Positions 5,058-28,117 of a stretch of DNA of 64,000 nt are shown in pieces (positions within the stretch are counted from its first letter, which is position 1; each line of letters opens with the position of its first letter). Location: positions 211,928 to 275,927 of the forward strand of contig JANOQN010000068.1 of NCBI GenBank assembly GCA_031422315.1, written 5' to 3'. Position numbers and translations under genes: made by a program. The notes beneath the pieces were generated by a model. That model was not told the DNA's origin, did no database searches, and worked only from the letters and a program-made list of their open reading frames with translations. The DNA comes from Rhodanobacteraceae bacterium (GTDB lineage Bacteria; Pseudomonadota; Gammaproteobacteria; Xanthomonadales; SZUA-5).

Positions 5058-5132
5058 TTAAGATGTTGCCAACCTTCTAGCGAAATAACGTTTTAACTGC
5101 GTGTATCTTGCCCGAATTTTCATCCGACGCCT

Positions 5133-6164
5133 CTACGCAACCTCAACTAAACGCGGCGCAATTCCCGCCAGTGACTCAGCAATCACACGAATATGCTCTG
5201 GCGTAGTTCCGCAGCAGCCGCCAACAATATTGACCAGTCCACTTTGTGCGAATTCTTTGAGTACGCGTGCCATATCTTCAGCGCTTTCATCATAGCCGCC
5301 AAACGCGTTTGGTAAGCCGGCGTTCGGGTGCGTGCTGATCAGCGTGGCGGGTGCGGCTAGGCCAAGCTCTTCAATGTACGGGCGCAAATCCTCCGCACCT
5401 AGTGCGCAATTCAAACCAATCGAAAAAGGCCTGCTGTGCAACACTGAATAGGCAAAGGCTTCGGCAGTTTGGCCCGATAGCGTACGGCCGGATTTATCGG
5501 TAATGGTGCCAGAAATCATGACCGGCACACGCCAGCCTTTTTCCGCGTAAAGCTGATCCAGCGCATACAGCGCGGCTTTGGCATTGAGGGTATCGAACAC
5601 GGTTTCAACCATAATGACATCCGAGCCGCCTTCAATCAGCGCCAATGCGGCTTGTTTGTAGCTCACTGCAAGTTCGTCAAAACTCACTGCGCGGAAGCCT
5701 GGATTATTAACATCCGGAGAGATTGATGCGGTGCGATTAGTCGGCCCCAACACGCCCATAACAAAGCGCGGTTTTTCTGGCGTTTGCTCGGTTTTGCGAT
5801 CCGCTAGTTCGCGCGCCAGGCGTGCGCCTTCAAAATTAAGCTCGGTCACCAAATCTTCCATGTGGTAATCGGCTTGAGAAATTGTTGTGGCGTTAAACGT
5901 ATTGGTTTCCAAAAAATCTGCGCCGGCATCTAGATAAGCTTGATGCACCGCTTGCAGGATTTTCGGCTGCGATAAAATCAGCAAATCATTATTGCCTTTG
6001 ACTTCATGGCTGAAATCCTTAAAGCGTTCACCACGATAGCCCGCTTCGTCCAGCTGATAGCTTTGCAACATCGATCCGTATGCGCCATCAATAAACATAA
6101 TACGCTGGCTGGCGGATTTGAAAAGTAGCTCGGCTCGGGCCGGATCAAAATAAGGTAGGGGCAT
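5133..6164 (-). CDS. metH: Stand-alone homocysteine-binding (S-methyltransferase) domain of cobalamin-dependent methionine synthase
   Basis: Zinc-ligand motifs GLNCALG and [25 protein letters not shown]-terminus. Stops at 5133 with no pterin or B12 modules downstream. ATG 6164 chosen; the ORF-track TTG 6188 is also possible. Confidence 0.85.
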
Positions 6165-6194
6165 CGTTAGTCCAGTAGCGTTAATCAAATCAGG

Positions 6195-7121
6195 TTAGTT
6201 AAATTCGTTCGGCATGAACATTGGGCGCGTTGCGGTGAACACTAGAACCTCAAAATGCGGCGGTTTGCGTTCCCGCGTCGCGATATTGACGCGCACGTCG
6301 TCAAAGCCCGCGTTGGTAAGTAAGGTTGCAAGTGCCTCAAGCGTAAATCCGCAGTTTTTATGCCCATACGGCGCGACGATGTCTTCAAAATTGTGCGCCG
6401 CAATCGCGGTGCCGACGACTCGACCGTGGTATCTAAGTACGCGCGCTATTTCGGCGAAGAGCTTCTCTGGCGCGTCCGAGTAGGGCAGGGCTTGCAGCAA
6501 GATGACCTCGGTAAAGGTTGCGTCTGGCAAGTTCAGTGCGTGCATGTCACCGACTTCGACCTTAGCGTTATCAAAGCGGGCCAGCCGCTTGCGCGCTGCA
6601 TCAACCACGCGTTGGCTATGGTCAATACAGGTGACGGAATTCGCGCGGCTAGCGAGCAACTCGGCCAAAACCCCATCGCCACTGGCTAGATCAAGCACGT
6701 CGCGCAATTCACACATCCCTAGCAGCGCGTGCGTAAGCGCTTCCCAGGTGCGCCCGGGGGAATAATGGCGCTCCATATCGCCGGCCACGCTATCGGCCCA
6801 GCTGTTGCTGTCTTCACGTGCGCGCAGCAGCTTTTGCATGCGTTCGGTATCGGCAAGCAGCGTTGGATCATGCGTGCTGGAACTGATCGCTTGAATCATC
6901 GCCTGCTCGGCGCCGCTTAATTCAGTGGCGCTGAAGCGATAGAAAGCCTGCACGCCGCGGCGCCGGTCGGTCACTAATTTGGCTTCTTTTAACTTTGCCA
7001 AGTGGGTAGACACGCGCGGCTGCTTCAAATCGGTAATTGCGGAAAGCTCCGCCACGGTTAGCTCTTCTTGCTGCAAAAGCGCGATCAACCGCAGCCGAGA
7101 AGGCTCAGCCAGTAGCTTCAA
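6195..7121 (-). CDS. sahR: SahR-like regulator: ArsR/SmtB wHTH fused to a SAM-methyltransferase-like sensor domain
   Basis: N-terminus LRLIALLQQEELTVAELSAITDLKQPRVSTHLAKLKEAKLV (ArsR HTH). MTase motif I VLDLASGDG. Lies 6 nt upstream of the metH fragment. TTG start. Confidence 0.8.
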   Translation of the reverse strand: MKLLAEPSRLRLIALLQQEELTVAELSAITDLKQPRVSTHLAKLKEAKLVTDRRRGVQAFYRFSATELSGAEQAMIQAISSSTHDPTLLADTERMQKLLRAREDSNSWADSVAGDMERHYSPGRTWEALTHALLGMCELRDVLDLASGDGVLAELLASRANSVTCIDHSQRVVDAARKRLARFDNAKVEVGDMHALNLPDATFTEVILLQALPYSDAPEKLFAEIARVLRYHGRVVGTAIAAHNFEDIVAPYGHKNCGFTLEALATLLTNAGFDDVRVNIATRERKPPHFEVLVFTATRPMFMPNEFN

Positions 7122-10545: not shown

Positions 10546-11658
10546 TTATTGAATGGTCGCTTCGGCGCGCCGATTTGCTTTGCGTCCGTCTACTGTGTCG
10601 TTATCGCCTTTGGGCGCTTCCGATGCGATTGACGCTTGCGAGAGCTCAGCTTGAATACCCGCTTGCTTAAGTGCTGCGCTCAAAAACTCAGCTCTTGCAG
10701 TGGCTAGAGCGCGGTTTTTCTCAGCAGAGCCCGACGTGTCAGTATGGCCGGTAATTAGCACGCGCTTGCCCGCCGCAGCGTCTACGAAGGCTTTTAGTTG
10801 AGCGGTTTGTTGATCGGTCAGCGTACTGGTTGACCGGTTCGAACCAAAGTAAATCGTCAGCGTCTGCGTGGAGCTATCCGCCAAGGGCAGGGCGTCAATC
10901 CAGCGAAAGCGAGCCGCTGCGAACGGGCTGGCGGGAAGTGCATCGCTTAACAACAGTGAGCGCAGCTGAGTGCGATCAGCTGCAATTTCACTCGTAAAAA
11001 GACTTTGCGCCGCTTTCGCGCGTTCTAAGCCTAGATCACGTGTGCCTGCACCCGCCACTTCGCTCTGATACCAAACACCGGTAATTTCAAACTGCTGATC
11101 CTTGCCACCTTGGCCAAACGCAGATTTAAATGCGGAAAAATCCGGGCCGGTGATCGCTGCTGCGCTGCCCGTGTCAAATACCAGCGGCTCTGGCGGCGCA
11201 ATCATCGGCACCGGCGCGTTGAGCGCCACCCAGCTAAAGTCAATGGCTTCGAAAACGCGCGTTTGTGAAGGCGCGGCCCGTGGCTCAAGCCTATTCGCGG
11301 TTTTAATTCGCTCTAACGGCAGCAAGGTTTGAAACTGCGCTGCCGCCGCCTGCGCGCGCAGCTCCCCCAAATTTGGCACGCCACCATTATCTTCGTCGCT
11401 AAAATACAGCCCGGTAATCAGCAAGGCATCTTCAGGCTTGCCCGATTGAATCAGCTGTTGCTGAAACTGCAAAAAGGCCGGCGTGGTTTTTGCTGCCGCA
11501 GTCCGATAGTCAAACGCAATGGGCGGTACGCTTTGCACCGGTGTAGCTGCTGTGGCGCGCGAATGCCCCACAGCCTTGTGATGTTTGACGTACCAATAGG
11601 CTACCGCGCCAAAATACAGCACGGAAATCGCTAAAATCCAGCGTATCCAAGCGCTCAT
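10546..11658 (-). CDS. OmpA/MotB-family peptidoglycan-binding protein with N-terminal TM anchor
   Basis: C-terminal OmpA-like motif VLITGHTDTSGSAEKNRALATARAEF...RRAEATIQ. Start trimmed to ATG 11658 (GAGGTG SD, MSAWIRWILAISVLYFGAVAYW TM) instead of ORF-track 11874. Confidence 0.85.
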   Translation of the reverse strand: MSAWIRWILAISVLYFGAVAYWYVKHHKAVGHSRATAATPVQSVPPIAFDYRTAAAKTTPAFLQFQQQLIQSGKPEDALLITGLYFSDEDNGGVPNLGELRAQAAAAQFQTLLPLERIKTANRLEPRAAPSQTRVFEAIDFSWVALNAPVPMIAPPEPLVFDTGSAAAITGPDFSAFKSAFGQGGKDQQFEITGVWYQSEVAGAGTRDLGLERAKAAQSLFTSEIAADRTQLRSLLLSDALPASPFAAARFRWIDALPLADSSTQTLTIYFGSNRSTSTLTDQQTAQLKAFVDAAAGKRVLITGHTDTSGSAEKNRALATARAEFLSAALKQAGIQAELSQASIASEAPKGDNDTVDGRKANRRAEATIQ

Positions 11659-12014
11659 GTTCACCTCAATGCATTTTCGTAAACAATGCGTAGAGTGCCC
11701 GAACTGCGGTAGAAGGCAAGTGGAAGCTTTGCCATTGTTGACGCATTCGAGAAAAGCGCGTAGGTTTTGCGCATTATTCATGCGCACTGGCCAGATTTGA
11801 CAATCACGGCGAAAAAAAACTACCAACTTGAGCCTTCCGGTGGACGTTTTATTGAGCGCACGCGCGCGGCGCAATCATTAAAAAAGCCATCTGGTAATTT
11901 AAGCTGTGCGCACAGCATTATTTTTCGCGCATTAGATTTTTTGCTTTCGGGGTACTGAAAATGTTCTTGATGGCTTCACGACGCGCTTAGCTATTTATCG
12001 CATTTTGACTAAAG

Positions 12015-12143
12015 GGAACCCTCACTACTAAGTCAAGCTAGGCGCGAAAGACAAAAATGGAGGCGGTATATAATTGATATATAACGATATTTTTTTCTTG
12101 AGTAACGACGCTTCACGACGAAAATGATGTTTTTATAGGTTCC
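12015..12143 (-). mobile_element. MITE-like TIR element, copy 1 (unclassified family)
   Basis: Starts GGAACC and ends GGTTCC. Flanked by a perfect 6-bp direct repeat CTAAAG (12009-12014, 12144-12149). About 80 % identical by eye, in inverted orientation, to 21987-22123. No ORF. Confidence 0.7.
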
Positions 12144-12705
12144 CTAAAGACTTGGCCCTCGGCGCAGATAGTGCCTTGCTATAAAACCCAGAAGGATCAA
12201 AACAGCAAACCCGCTTTTTGCCGGATTCGAGCATATTGCACGCCTTCCGTATTCGATCAATACGAGTCTTTGTTTGCTTACTGGATTCTATCCAGTGAAT
12301 CCAATCCACCTGCGCGATTGCACTAGTGCAATCCCAAACTGATTTTGCCCCAGCATTACTGGCAAGCGCCTTGGCAAAATCCGCTGGCGGCGTGGGTGGT
12401 GGCTCTTCGAGAAGCGGCGCAATTTGAACATCAACCGCATCGCCCATTTCGAGCGATGCACCCGCAAGCACCTGCAAATCAACGCGGAACCAATGGCTCA
12501 ATTGCCCATCAGGCTCCAACATGATTTGAAAGGCATCTCCGTTGATCGCCGCGTTAACCGTTATGCGCCCGCGTCTGGGAAGCCGATCACTTACAGTTTT
12601 GGGCAATACAATAAAGCCCCATGTGCTCAAGCCATGCGTATCCTCAGGCGCTAGCACGATGCCTTTGAAAGCGGCTGTATTGCTTTTGGCCTTTGTGGTG
12701 GTCAA
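12133..12705 (-). CDS. DUF1905 plus YdeI/OmpD-associated (bacteriocin-protection-type) domain protein
   Basis: N-terminal WGFIVLPKTVSDRLPRRGRITVNAAINGDAF (DUF1905-like). C-terminal DWIHWIESSKQTKTRIDRIRKACNML (YdeI-like). GAGGA SD with TTG start. The last codons and stop lie inside the MITE. Confidence 0.8.
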   Translation of the reverse strand: MTTTKAKSNTAAFKGIVLAPEDTHGLSTWGFIVLPKTVSDRLPRRGRITVNAAINGDAFQIMLEPDGQLSHWFRVDLQVLAGASLEMGDAVDVQIAPLLEEPPPTPPADFAKALASNAGAKSVWDCTSAIAQVDWIHWIESSKQTKTRIDRIRKACNMLESGKKRVCCFDPSGFYSKALSAPRAKSLGNL

Positions 12706-12893
12706 TTTTTCATCCTCGAATATTGCTGCGTAGCGCTTTTGCTTTACTTTTAACCCAACTTTTTTTCGATAGCACGGGAGTTAACTCAACCAAAGCACCG
12801 CACGTGCCAGCAAGCAAAGCGGCGAGAATGGTCTTATTCCAGTTCCAAACCAGAAACGCAAAATTGAAGCGGTCAAAAATCGTGCTTTAAAAC

Positions 12894-12940
12894 TTGGCCC
12901 CAAAGGGGCCAAATAAGACAGCCCAGGGCAACGCCCTGGG
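12894..12940 (-). repeat. Two-hairpin GC-rich module (triloop hairpins), copy A
   Basis: TTGGCCCC-AAA-GGGGCCAA and CCCAGGGC-AAC-GCCCTGGG, just downstream of the A2M stop. Same architecture (CCCTRGGCTG-N9-GCCC..GGGC) as 48052-48113. Confidence 0.5.
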
Positions 12941-13028
12941 TACAAATGGTGATATAGATTGGATCCCTGAGGGTGTAACAATTACTTGCCGAGCGTCTTT
13001 GGAATCGCTAAGTTTCAACCACTTTAGC

Positions 13029-16000
13029 TTACCGATTCACCCCACCACTCACCTCAATTCGCTCCGGAATCGATACGCCAATCGCTTGTAATTCGGGGCG
13101 ATACATATCTTCCATCATCGGCGGAGGAACGACAAAATTCCCCGGAGACACTGCCCGTGCGACGTAGTAAGCCATGGTTTTGCCTTCGCGTAGATTGAGT
13201 GCAACCACGTAGCGATCGTCTCTAAACTCTTCGGTGCGCGGGTAAAGCTCGGATCGAGCGTCGGATACTTTGATGCCGTCGATCTCAATGGCGGCGAGCT
13301 GTTCGGTCGGCACCAAATTGAGGTTTTCTGCTTCTAAGCCGCCGGGTAATAAATCGACCACGAGTGCGTCGGGCATCCAGATTTTTGATTCGATGGTCAA
13401 GCGCACAACCAGCTGCTCACCTTCCGCAATTTGGTTGCCGCTAAATCGAGTGCCGTCGATATTGAAATACGCTCGCGTGATGGAGACTGGATCAGCGCGA
13501 ACGGCGGGTGCGGTGCGCGGAATGCCAGCGGTTTGTTGAAGCAAATACACCTGTGGCGCGCTGAGCTCGATTTTTGCGCCCGCGTTCAAATCCGCCATGC
13601 TCAAATCACGTGCGAATAGGCCTGAAGTGGCGAAAGGCTCACGATTGGCACCGACAATCAGTGTGCCTTCCAAGCGATCTGGGCCACGCGCCATGGATTT
13701 GGCAAGCCGCACCAGCGTGGCGCGCTCTTGCGTCGAGAAATAATCCTTTGCACGCGCTTGATAGGCAATTTCCAGCAGCTTGCTTTCTTGACCTTTGGGC
13801 AGCGCATCGGCTTCTAACGCAAGTGCCAATGCCAAGGCTTGATCGCGCATTTCACTGCCGTAATCAGCGAGCCAGCGATCTTTGGGATACACCCAGCGCG
13901 CACCAAAAGCCTGAGCAAGCGCGGCGTCACCGCGTTTTTGATCGCCCGCGGCTTTTAACGCCAAGCCAATGCGTACCAAGGGCAGTGGCGATAGCGATTT
14001 CGCGTTTGCACCATCGTACAGCGTGCGCAAGCTGCCTAGCGGCGCTTGCTTGACTTTTGCCAGTACAAACGCCGCGTGCGCATTGTAGGAAAAGCGCAGG
14101 TGATCGGCATTATCTAAAAACACGCGGTCGTAGTTCACTTCGCCGCCGGAAAGTAGGTCCGTTTTTAGGCGCTCAAGCGCTTTTTGCAGTGTTTGTGGCG
14201 GTAGATCATAGCCTTGCGCCTGCGCATCAAGCAGTAGCTCGGCCACCAGCGGCGTGAATAATACTTCGACGTAATCAGTGCCAGGCCAGTAGTTAAAGTG
14301 TCCATTTTGCGACTGCATAGATGCTAGTCGACCCAACCCGGCATTGACTGAATCTTTGCGGCGTTTCGGATCAATTGGGCTCATGCCCAGCTTAACCAGT
14401 GCAGCATCGTCGAGCGTGACAAACGGCAGCAAACGGCTCGAGGTTTGCTCAATACAGCCGTACGGATAGTCAAATAGCTCTTTTGCCGCTTCCGCCACTG
14501 GAATCGGCGCGCGGTTCGAAAGGCTAACGCGCGAGCGCACGGTGTCAGCATAAAAGCCAGCGCTCGATACGCTTAGATCGATGCCTTTTGAATTGCTCAA
14601 GGATTCAAAGCGCGTGCTGCGCTGATCTCCCCAAGCCGGACGCACCACGGTTTCAAAGTTGCGGCTGAACTTTGCGCCATTGCCGCTCAAGCTGACCGAC
14701 ACCGCCGCAATGCCGATGCGGCCCGCGCTGATATCAAAGCTCAGGGTTTGCTTCTCTAAATCTTGCAGCGTGATCGTGCGGCTGCCGCCGACGAGCGTAA
14801 GCCCAGCGTCGGATTTCGCACTGACATTGAATTCGCCAGTTTTGCCGGTGAAATTTTGCACGTCGATACTGAGTTTGCTTACATCACCCGGCGCCAGCAC
14901 GCGCGGCAGGCTGGCTTCCACGACAATTGGTGCGCGTACGATGGTTTCCGCCGCACTCAGGCCAAAACGATCATCCGAATACACCAGCGCGCTGACTTTC
15001 AAGCTGCCGTTAAAATCAGGCACCGGTAATTTGACCACCGCCTCGCCATTGGCATCAAGTGCCACTTGGCCACTGAATAAGTCAATGGTTTGCACTTTGG
15101 CAGTTTTGCGCGCAGCTTGCGGCAGCTCGCTTATGCCTGCATCACCGCCGAAGCGAAAGCGCGCCGCATTGCCTTCCAAGGCTTCAATCACACGGCCATA
15201 AACGTCATACAAATCAATAGCAAATGCCCGCTGTGCAAAAAAGTGTTTAAACGGATTTGGCACTTCAAAGCGGGTGATATTGGTGATGCCCTGATCGACT
15301 GCGTGCAGTGAGACAGACGCGGTTTTGCCCTTCAAAGCGGGCACTTGCACGCGCACTTCTAAATCACGTTCGGGCAGAATTTTTGCTGGCGCAGTGAGCT
15401 TCACTTCTAGCTGGCGAGCGCTACGATCCATCGGCAAATGCATCATGCCAAGCGCGCGTTTGGGCGTGATGAATTCGGTGTTTGAGCCCGGCTTAAACAC
15501 CATCGCGCTAAAATACACATCGTGGCGATCCCACTCGGGTTTAATCGTCACATCTAGCGTGACGCTGTCTTTGACGGTAAACGGGCGACTTTCCAGCAAA
15601 TGATCGGATTCGATCAACAACAATCCTTCGCCCGAATTGGGTGGCGTGATGGTTAACTCAACGGTATCGCCAACTTTATAAGCCGATTTATCCATCGCCA
15701 GCTTGACTTTGTCTGGCCGAGCATCTGGGCCAAGGTTATCGCTGCCCCAGCTCCAACCCGCATGAAATGGATAGCGCGTGACCAGGCCAGTCGCGCTATC
15801 GGTCAACTCAATTCGATAGTCGCCCCATTCCACCGGAAATTCGATCTTCTTCGCGGTTTTGCCATCCAGTGCAACGGTTTGCACCGGGGTTTCGCTAAAG
15901 CTGGAAGTAAAATCCGCCACCCAGCCCGAACCCGAATTGTACGACCAGCGATAATCGCGGCGCTCACGAATCAGCTTGACTGACACGCTGCCGGTGAGCG

Positions 16001-21974: not shown

Positions 21975-21986
21975 TTGGAAGCTCAC

Positions 21987-22123
21987 GGAACCTCTAAAAA
22001 CCCATTTTCGTCGTGAAGCTCAAAGCGAAAGAAAAATATTTCCTTATATATCAACCATATACCGCCCCAATATTTGTCTTTTGTGCCTAGCTTGACTTAG
22101 AAAATGGAGTTTTTAGAGGTTTC
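21987..22123 (+). mobile_element. MITE-like TIR element, copy 2 (unclassified family)
   Basis: TIRs GGAACCTCTAAAAAC / GTTTTTAGAGGTTTC (14 of 15 complementary). Flanking direct repeat GCTCAC (21981-21986) / GCTCAA (22124-22129). Sits between the convergent ggt and methyltransferase stops. Confidence 0.75.
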
Positions 22124-22139
22124 GCTCAATTAGCTGACT

Positions 22140-28074: not shown

Positions 28075-28117
28075 CCTCGTCATCCCCGCGAAGGCGGGGA
28101 TCCAGAACAGGTGTCAG
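28075..28117. repeat. REP/MITE family, solo left arm (copy 3)
   Basis: CCTCGTCATCCCCGCGAAGGCGGGGATCCAGAACAGGTGTCAG. No matching right arm found downstream. Confidence 0.7.

Follow-up and report, generated by a model that had tools for sequence, protein, structure and literature searches.

MITEs are already known as a kind of element. Correia elements have 26-bp repeats that begin TATAGTGGATTAA and duplicate TA, and REPs and REPINs are not known to have flanking target-site duplications. Published TIMEs (Tn3-derived MITEs) make 5-bp, sometimes 6-bp, AT-rich duplications (PMC4133298; PMC13367494), and in Xanthomonadales it is common for Tn3-type ends to carry unusual tips, GAGGG being one of them (PMC4337579). 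The window analysed here, by which we mean the whole stretch of 64,000 nucleotides, contains two copies (A and B) of an AT-rich element with defined terminal repeats, and copy A lies in the coding end of a DUF1905/YdeI gene. We are highly confident that the element is itself a MITE, derived from a DNA transposon, 137-140 bp long and without coding capacity; its family is unnamed. The relevant features of the window, and the copies found outside it, are as follows.

5127..5138, minus strand: end of the homocysteine S-methyltransferase gene, with the stop codon plus the bases that follow; the position at which copy C lies in L093
12009..12014, no strand: CTAAAG, left direct repeat of copy A (target-site duplication); TAAAG at 12010-12014 in a 5-bp reading
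12015..12143, minus strand: copy A, decayed element, 129 bp, with the type-1 arm first on the minus strand (GGAACCTATAAAAACATCATTTTCGTCGTGAAGC...)
12015..12032, plus strand: type-2 terminal repeat of copy A, degenerate (from alignments)
12110..12143, minus strand: type-1 terminal repeat of copy A, intact (GGAACCTATAAAAACATCATTTTCGTCGTGAAGC; from sequence, ORF and excision)
12133..12705, minus strand: DUF1905/YdeI (OmdA) gene, 190 aa (ORF; PF08922 and PF13376), with its last codons and stop derived from the element
12144..12149, no strand: CTAAAG, right direct repeat of copy A; TAAAG at 12145-12149 in a 5-bp reading
21981..21986, no strand: GCTCAC, left flank of copy B; the duplicated part is GCTCA, and C21986 is probably the element's own first base
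21987..22123, plus strand: copy B, 137 bp, intact, type-1 arm first (BLAST, fold)
22124..22129, no strand: GCTCAA, right flank of copy B; the empty site of relatives has a single GCTCAG
L093 14388-14526: copy C, full
L035 3733-3791: copy D, half copy, in a MAG titled Rhodanobacteraceae bacterium
L086 1733-1804: copy E, cut by a contig end
L096 17424-17563: copy F, full
L096 17843-17892: copy G, cut by a contig end

Reading the window placed the element and its CTAAAG flanks exactly where the preliminary description had put them. In context copy A reads ...ttga CTAAAG GGAACCCTCACTAC ... GTTTTTATAGGTTCC CTAAAG actt..., the element lying between the two CTAAAG copies, with GGAACC from 12015 and GGTTCC up to 12143 as its tips. 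It matches the profile of the element family with E = 1e-41 (nhmmer) and shares 85-90% identity with copies B, C and F. The end at 12015 had been described as decayed, and it is indeed 10 nt shorter than in the intact copies, reading TAGTAGTGAGGGTTCC in place of TAGAAAATGAAGTTTTTAGAGGTTCC: only the outer GGAACC of the type-2 terminal repeat is kept, and about 10 nt (TTTTTAGAGG in copy F) are gone. Two GAGG repeats that bracket TTTTTAGAGG are visible in copy F, and the 10 nt were lost from copy A after insertion, most simply by slippage between two such repeats. Copy A is probably an immobile fossil now. Its folding is no better than that of shuffled sequences (z = -0.6 to -1.7 as RNA, z = -0.3 as DNA). 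Immediately to the left of copy A (11950-12008), the stretch CTTGATGGCTTCACGACGCG has an exact 11-mer, GCTTCACGACG, and CTTGA in common with the type-1 arm; its profile score is not significant (E = 4.3), and it could be an older decayed fragment that complicates what is taken as the 'ancestral' end of ydeI.

When positions 12015-12149 were excised, the end of the predicted protein changed from ...AKSLGNL* (190 aa) to ...AKSLVKMR* (191 aa) within an intact ORF that has its own stop, which reproduces the restored end proposed earlier. The type-1 repeat of copy A provides the Asn and Leu codons and the TAA stop of YdeI, together with two or more bases of its Gly codon, and copy A entered four codons ahead of the ydeI stop, turning ...VKMR* into ...GNL*. 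The earlier statement that the 3' end of the gene had been rewritten holds insofar as the insertion lies in the coding end of YdeI, but the altered part is confined to the last four codons. Across 60 YdeI homologues the conserved ...FYSK.LSAP motif is followed by a tail of 4-8 residues with no conservation. The changed codons sit inside this freely varying tail, and a functional effect of the insertion on YdeI is unlikely. The trimming of the last four codons is an ordinary kind of event. An empty-site allele of copy A, which the preliminary description had proposed looking for in relatives, was not found: the nearest YdeI homologue among 5.8 billion proteins is 69% identical, and the A2M-YdeI-OmpA order is absent from the related contigs that carry the neighbouring A2M and OmpA genes (L091, L092, L093). 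Set against window positions 11658-13029, these relatives (L091 14955-15537, L092 6112-6608, L093 7555-9041) have A2M followed by an unrelated 121-aa gene and then the contig end, and a CcdA antitoxin gene ahead of OmpA; the ydeI region may be a variable spot.

The outer 15 nt of the element form inverted repeats, GGAACCTCTAAAAAC ... GTTTTTAGAGGTTCC, which are perfect in copies C and F, carry one mismatch in copy B and are degenerate at one end of copy A; the end motif can also be given as GGGAACCTCTAAAAAC. Beyond them the complementarity becomes imperfect but extends to about 34 nt and from there over the whole element, and one strand can form a long hairpin. Two arms can be told apart consistently across the copies, a type-1 arm GGAACCTCTAAAAACCCCATTTTCGTCGTGAAGC (inner part ...CCCCATTTTCGTCGTGAAGC) and an unlike type-2 arm GGAACCTCTAAAAACTYCATTTTCTAAGTCAAGC (inner part ...TYCATTTTCTAAGTCAAGC), which gives the element a polarity. 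The two ends of a longer parent, fused by an internal deletion, would look like this. Intact copies fold far better than their shuffles (z = -4.9 to -8.9 overall; z = -4.9 to -7.6 as DNA), the hairpin of copy B being near-perfect (-51.9 kcal/mol, z = -8.9 as RNA). Of the 46 pairs in the consensus fold, two show compensatory double changes. The element had been said to encode no protein, and no ORF wholly within it is longer than 25 aa, the length of the longest one in copy B. No family of Rfam 15 matched anywhere in the window at gathering thresholds, and a permissive Rfam scan returned only matches of 17-18 bits, against thresholds of 135-211 bits, to models of plant miRNA hairpins. When copies A and B were scanned for promoters and terminators, no sites emerged within the elements, and no suitable -10 element accompanies the TTGACT of the type-2 arm. 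An attC site was considered and dropped, since the ends do not match the RYYYAAC / GTTRRRY cores.

Seven copies were found in all, several of them at sites unrelated to one another. The window has A and B, one related metagenome assembly has C, F and G, and D and E come from elsewhere; copies C to G were located by pattern scans together with a nucleotide profile. The copy search suggested by the preliminary description was productive in the window as well as in three further assemblies. Lengths are 129-140 bp for full copies and 137-140 bp for intact ones. Copy B is inverted relative to copy A, with 82.8% identity over 116 nt (E = 6e-28, BLAST) or 84.9% in a global alignment; roughly 80% had been estimated by eye for 21987-22123. 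Pairwise identity among the copies ranges from 85 to 100%, A and B being the most diverged pair (85%), and copies C and E are identical over 71 nt, though they stand at different loci and come from different datasets, which suggests recent activity of the element. Two copies occur in the 64-kb window and three in about 56 kb of one relative. The terminal motif GGAACCTCTAAAAAC occurs six times in the window with up to three mismatches (1.1 expected), a number that none of 100 shuffles reached.

The pattern GAAAATGN{1,2}GTTTTTANAGGTT gave 81 loci in a genome collection that does not include the source genome, and 80 of these were single chance matches in AT-rich genomes, the sole real locus being L035. 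A stricter arm pattern had one match in metagenomes, L086. Only chance matches came from three scans of viral contigs and from BLAST of one arm against 72,556 plasmids, BLAST of the whole element against plasmids gave no meaningful match, and a literature search for the terminal-repeat strings returned only unrelated primer sequences. Copy D is truncated beside a GC-rich palindrome, CCGCCCACCCGGGTGGGCGG (L035 3690-3730), which may be another inserted repeat that cut it.

Mobility of the element is shown directly at the site of copy B, which fills the gap between convergent gamma-glutamyltranspeptidase and methyltransferase genes whose proteins fall in clusters that also include metagenome relatives. 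Two related contigs, L087 and L088, share about 90% DNA identity with the window and the same convergent gene pair, and have no copy B: the site reads GGTGAGTGGAA-GCTCAG-TTAGCT in these relatives and GGTGATTGGAA-GCTCAC-[137 nt]-GCTCAA-TTAGCT in the window, where the 143 additional bases are the element plus the duplication. Copy C lies directly behind the TAG stop of the homocysteine S-methyltransferase gene of L093, a contig that shares about 81% identity with the window. In the window, the orthologous region between the genes (around 5133) has no copy, and the DNA there has diverged too far to define an empty site to the base. The occurrence of occupied and empty orthologous sites, together with the duplicated flanks, shows insertion and not vertical descent. 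Genomes with copies are about 81-82% identical in syntenic DNA and their copies are 87-93% identical to each other, and this higher conservation fits either a recent spread from a conserved master copy or a constraint on the sequence. A further relative, L091, has an extra TylF-type methyltransferase gene (5458-6207) between the methyltransferase and gamma-glutamyltranspeptidase genes, where the window (21975-22139) has copy B; this gap between the genes has changed its make-up at least twice.

The preliminary description had read the CTAAAG pair as a perfect 6-bp target-site duplication. The pair is present, but a length of 6 bp is not secure. When each of the four full copies is oriented so that its type-1 arm leads, its flanks read as follows.

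Copy A: CTTTAG (left), CTTTAG (right)
Copy B: GCTCAC (left), GCTCAA (right)
Copy C: CTACAG (left), CTACAA (right)
Copy F: ATAAAG (left), CTAAAG (right)

Bases match at 16/16 positions in a 4-bp reading, at 19/20 in a 5-bp reading and at 21/24 in a 6-bp reading. The 5-bp reading assigns one extra G (C in copy B) to the type-1 end and gives the duplications CTTTA, GCTCA, CTACA and A/CTAAA; in copy A, the element then ends with C12144 (minus strand: GGGAACC). A 4-bp reading requires one extra base per end, leaves matches outside the repeat unexplained and needs two complementary changes in copy B. A duplication of 4-6 bp is indicated, and 5 bp is the most likely length on the evidence of the four full copies. 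At one site, chance would produce a perfect 6-bp flanking repeat with a probability of 1/4096, and the flanks of all four full-length copies match at five or more of six bases, for which the chance is about (19/4096)^4. The A+T content of the core targets exceeds that of the genome (52.8% G+C). An assignment of CTAAAG or CTA to the terminal repeat itself was rejected, as the flanks are direct rather than inverted and differ between copies.

What was found corresponds to a MITE in every feature that could be tested: a size well below 500 bp, TIRs, target-site duplications, no transposase gene, and empty and occupied alleles for copies B and C. The earlier characterisation as a MITE-like, non-autonomous element with TIRs is supported by the further copies, their duplicated flanks and the empty sites of copy B. 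A transposase encoded elsewhere would bind both ends and insert the element at staggered cuts, the repair of which would duplicate 4-6 bp of target, most likely 5 bp, and we infer a DDE-type mechanism. An autonomous element with the same ends, an IS of the kind that the preliminary description had proposed searching for, was not found in about 295 kb of fetched DNA, in plasmids or in viral contigs.

Three other readings were weighed. The long hairpin of intact copies (z down to -8.9), the compensatory changes at two stem pairs, the closeness of a stop codon (0-16 nt) to three of the four full copies and the conservation of the copies above that of the surrounding genome would all suit a structured RNA gene or a cis-acting hairpin, acting as a stabiliser of transcript ends or a terminator and inherited vertically without being mobile. 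That orthologous sites are occupied in some relatives and empty in others, with duplicated flanks, shows insertion, however, and the orientation to the upstream gene varies (type-2 arm first in copy C, type-1 arm first in A and B), copies D and F lie away from gene 3' ends, and there is neither an Rfam match nor a terminator-like site within the elements, which makes this account very improbable. Some copies may have a secondary effect at the RNA level. Spread by a RAYT (IS200/IS605-like) through single-stranded hairpins, as for a REP or REPIN, would agree with an element that is palindromic over its whole length and with the separate REP-like family that occurs in inverted doublets in the same genome, but the target-site duplications at all four full copies and the perfect 15-nt TIRs with defined tips fit the end of a DDE transposon, and we regard a REP/REPIN type as extremely unlikely. 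There is finally the reading that the CTAAAG pair is coincidental and that a native gene end resembles 21987-22123 by chance, for which the failure to find an empty-site allele of copy A could be cited; its probability is close to negligible given the profile match of copy A (E = 1e-41), the flanking repeats at every other full copy and the ORF with its own stop codon that excision of copy A yields.

A link to the Tn3 family stands apart from these, as it refines the MITE reading and is not opposed to it, and we offer it as a tentative lead, not as a result. The element would then be a TIME that a Tn3-family transposase mobilises in trans, by replicative transposition that leaves 5-bp duplications, which we consider possible but doubtful. 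Pointing this way are the best-fitting duplication of 5 bp (19/20 bases); the type-1 tip of copies E and G with the flanking G (GGGGAACCTCTAAAAAC), which matches the Tn21 repeat GGGGCACCTCAGAAAAC at 14/17 positions tip to tip, a score against the Tn21 repeat that only 0.15% of the window's 38-mers equal; and arms whose similarity extends over about 34 nt and whose last bases are GAAG or CAAG, near the 38-nt GGGG...TAAG layout. A further point in favour is that odd tips on Tn3-type ends, for example GAGGG, are common in Xanthomonadales (PMC4337579). The Tn21 and Tn3 repeats used for comparison were verified as real plasmid sequences, beside merR and beside a Tn3 transposase gene. However, the tips of most copies are GGG or GG and not GGGG, the inner ACGCTAAG or ACGTTAAG block is missing, the repeat is about 4 nt short, and in global comparisons with the Tn501 and Tn3 repeats the element does not outscore shuffled sequences. 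The Tn21 resemblance was chosen post hoc and among few candidates, no Tn3-family transposase was found near any copy, and the BLAST of the arm against 72,556 plasmids gave chance matches only. A more specific version, in which this is an undescribed family of Tn3-derived MITEs that are unusually short at about 140 bp, with trimmed repeats of about 34 nt, resident in the chromosomes of an uncultured Lysobacterales lineage and with a full-length hairpin kept by selection, is unlikely. If it were true, the selected hairpin would explain both the conservation of the copies above that of their host genomes and the compensated stem changes, and copies at stop codons might also act on transcripts, through 3'-end stability or termination. 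Confirmation of the Tn3 link would extend Tn3-derived miniatures from clinical and Pseudomonas plasmids to environmental Xanthomonadales-like chromosomes.

The nearest named MnmG homologues are 73-74% identical and come mostly from Xanthomonadales/Lysobacterales genomes and MAGs (Aquimonas, Rudaea, Chiayiivirga), with a few labelled betaproteobacterial. The host is an uncultured Xanthomonadales/Lysobacterales lineage of soil or water bacteria, which fits the Rhodanobacteraceae label of L035. The window also holds a second and commoner repeat family, CGTCATTCCCGCGAAGGCGGGAATCC, with 11 matches at up to three mismatches (0.03 expected), mostly as inverted pairs 70-135 nt apart that resemble REPIN doublets.

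4922-4941/5038-5057: CGTCATTCCCGCGAAGGCGGGAATCC repeats
22868-22887/22939-22958: CGTCATTCCCGCGAAGGCGGGAATCC repeats
28078-28097: CGTCATTCCCGCGAAGGCGGGAATCC repeat
29742-29761/29864-29883: CGTCATTCCCGCGAAGGCGGGAATCC repeats
49672-49691/49794-49813: CGTCATTCCCGCGAAGGCGGGAATCC repeats
51665-51684/51737-51756: CGTCATTCCCGCGAAGGCGGGAATCC repeats

This repeat has the ATTCCC-N8-GGGAAT layout of Neisseria dRS3, and the short-read contigs L001, L089 and L090 break within it. Contigs of the related metagenome organisms have in common a third short repeat, 37 nt long, whose occurrences (L096 17643-17679, L096 11944-11980, L093 3856-3892 and L097 13141-13177) are about 92% identical.

The element does not challenge the current understanding of transposons. 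What it contributes is an unnamed MITE family from an uncultured and poorly sampled gammaproteobacterial lineage; the ends of the family are defined, a consensus is available and polymorphism of its sites is proven. For annotation, the element should be masked and gene ends that run into it distrusted, as with the element-supplied stop of YdeI; for assembly, it is relevant that copies E and G lie at the ends of short-read contigs.

Among known systems, the bacterial MITEs (MITEAba12 and the MITEs of ISfinder) share with this element a small size (129-140 bp here), the lack of a transposase gene, TIRs and short duplications, as well as several mostly intergenic copies, site polymorphism between relatives and a hairpin formed by the whole element. 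It differs from the named MITE families in having no sequence match to any that could be tested, and from bacterial MITEs generally in its host, an uncultured Lysobacterales/Rhodanobacteraceae-like lineage. TIMEs likewise have no coding capacity; they make 5-bp (or 6-bp) duplications in AT-richer targets, as the present element probably does, and the Tn21 repeat is similar in its G-rich tip followed by ACCTC.AAAAC and in an arm similarity of about 34 nt ending in AAG. Unlike the present element, however, TIMEs are 200-260 bp long and have 38-bp repeats that clearly match a known Tn3-family transposon, whereas the element described here is half that size, mostly has a GG/GGG tip and lacks the inner TAAG block. 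The ERIC consensus is probably unrelated to the element, and presumably neither a Correia nor an ERIC motif is present here. Correia (NEMIS) elements of Neisseria and ERIC/IRU elements of enterobacteria are nevertheless comparable as palindromic intergenic repeats of about 100-150 bp which, like copy A at the end of ydeI, can overlap gene ends and change a C-terminus or a stop codon.
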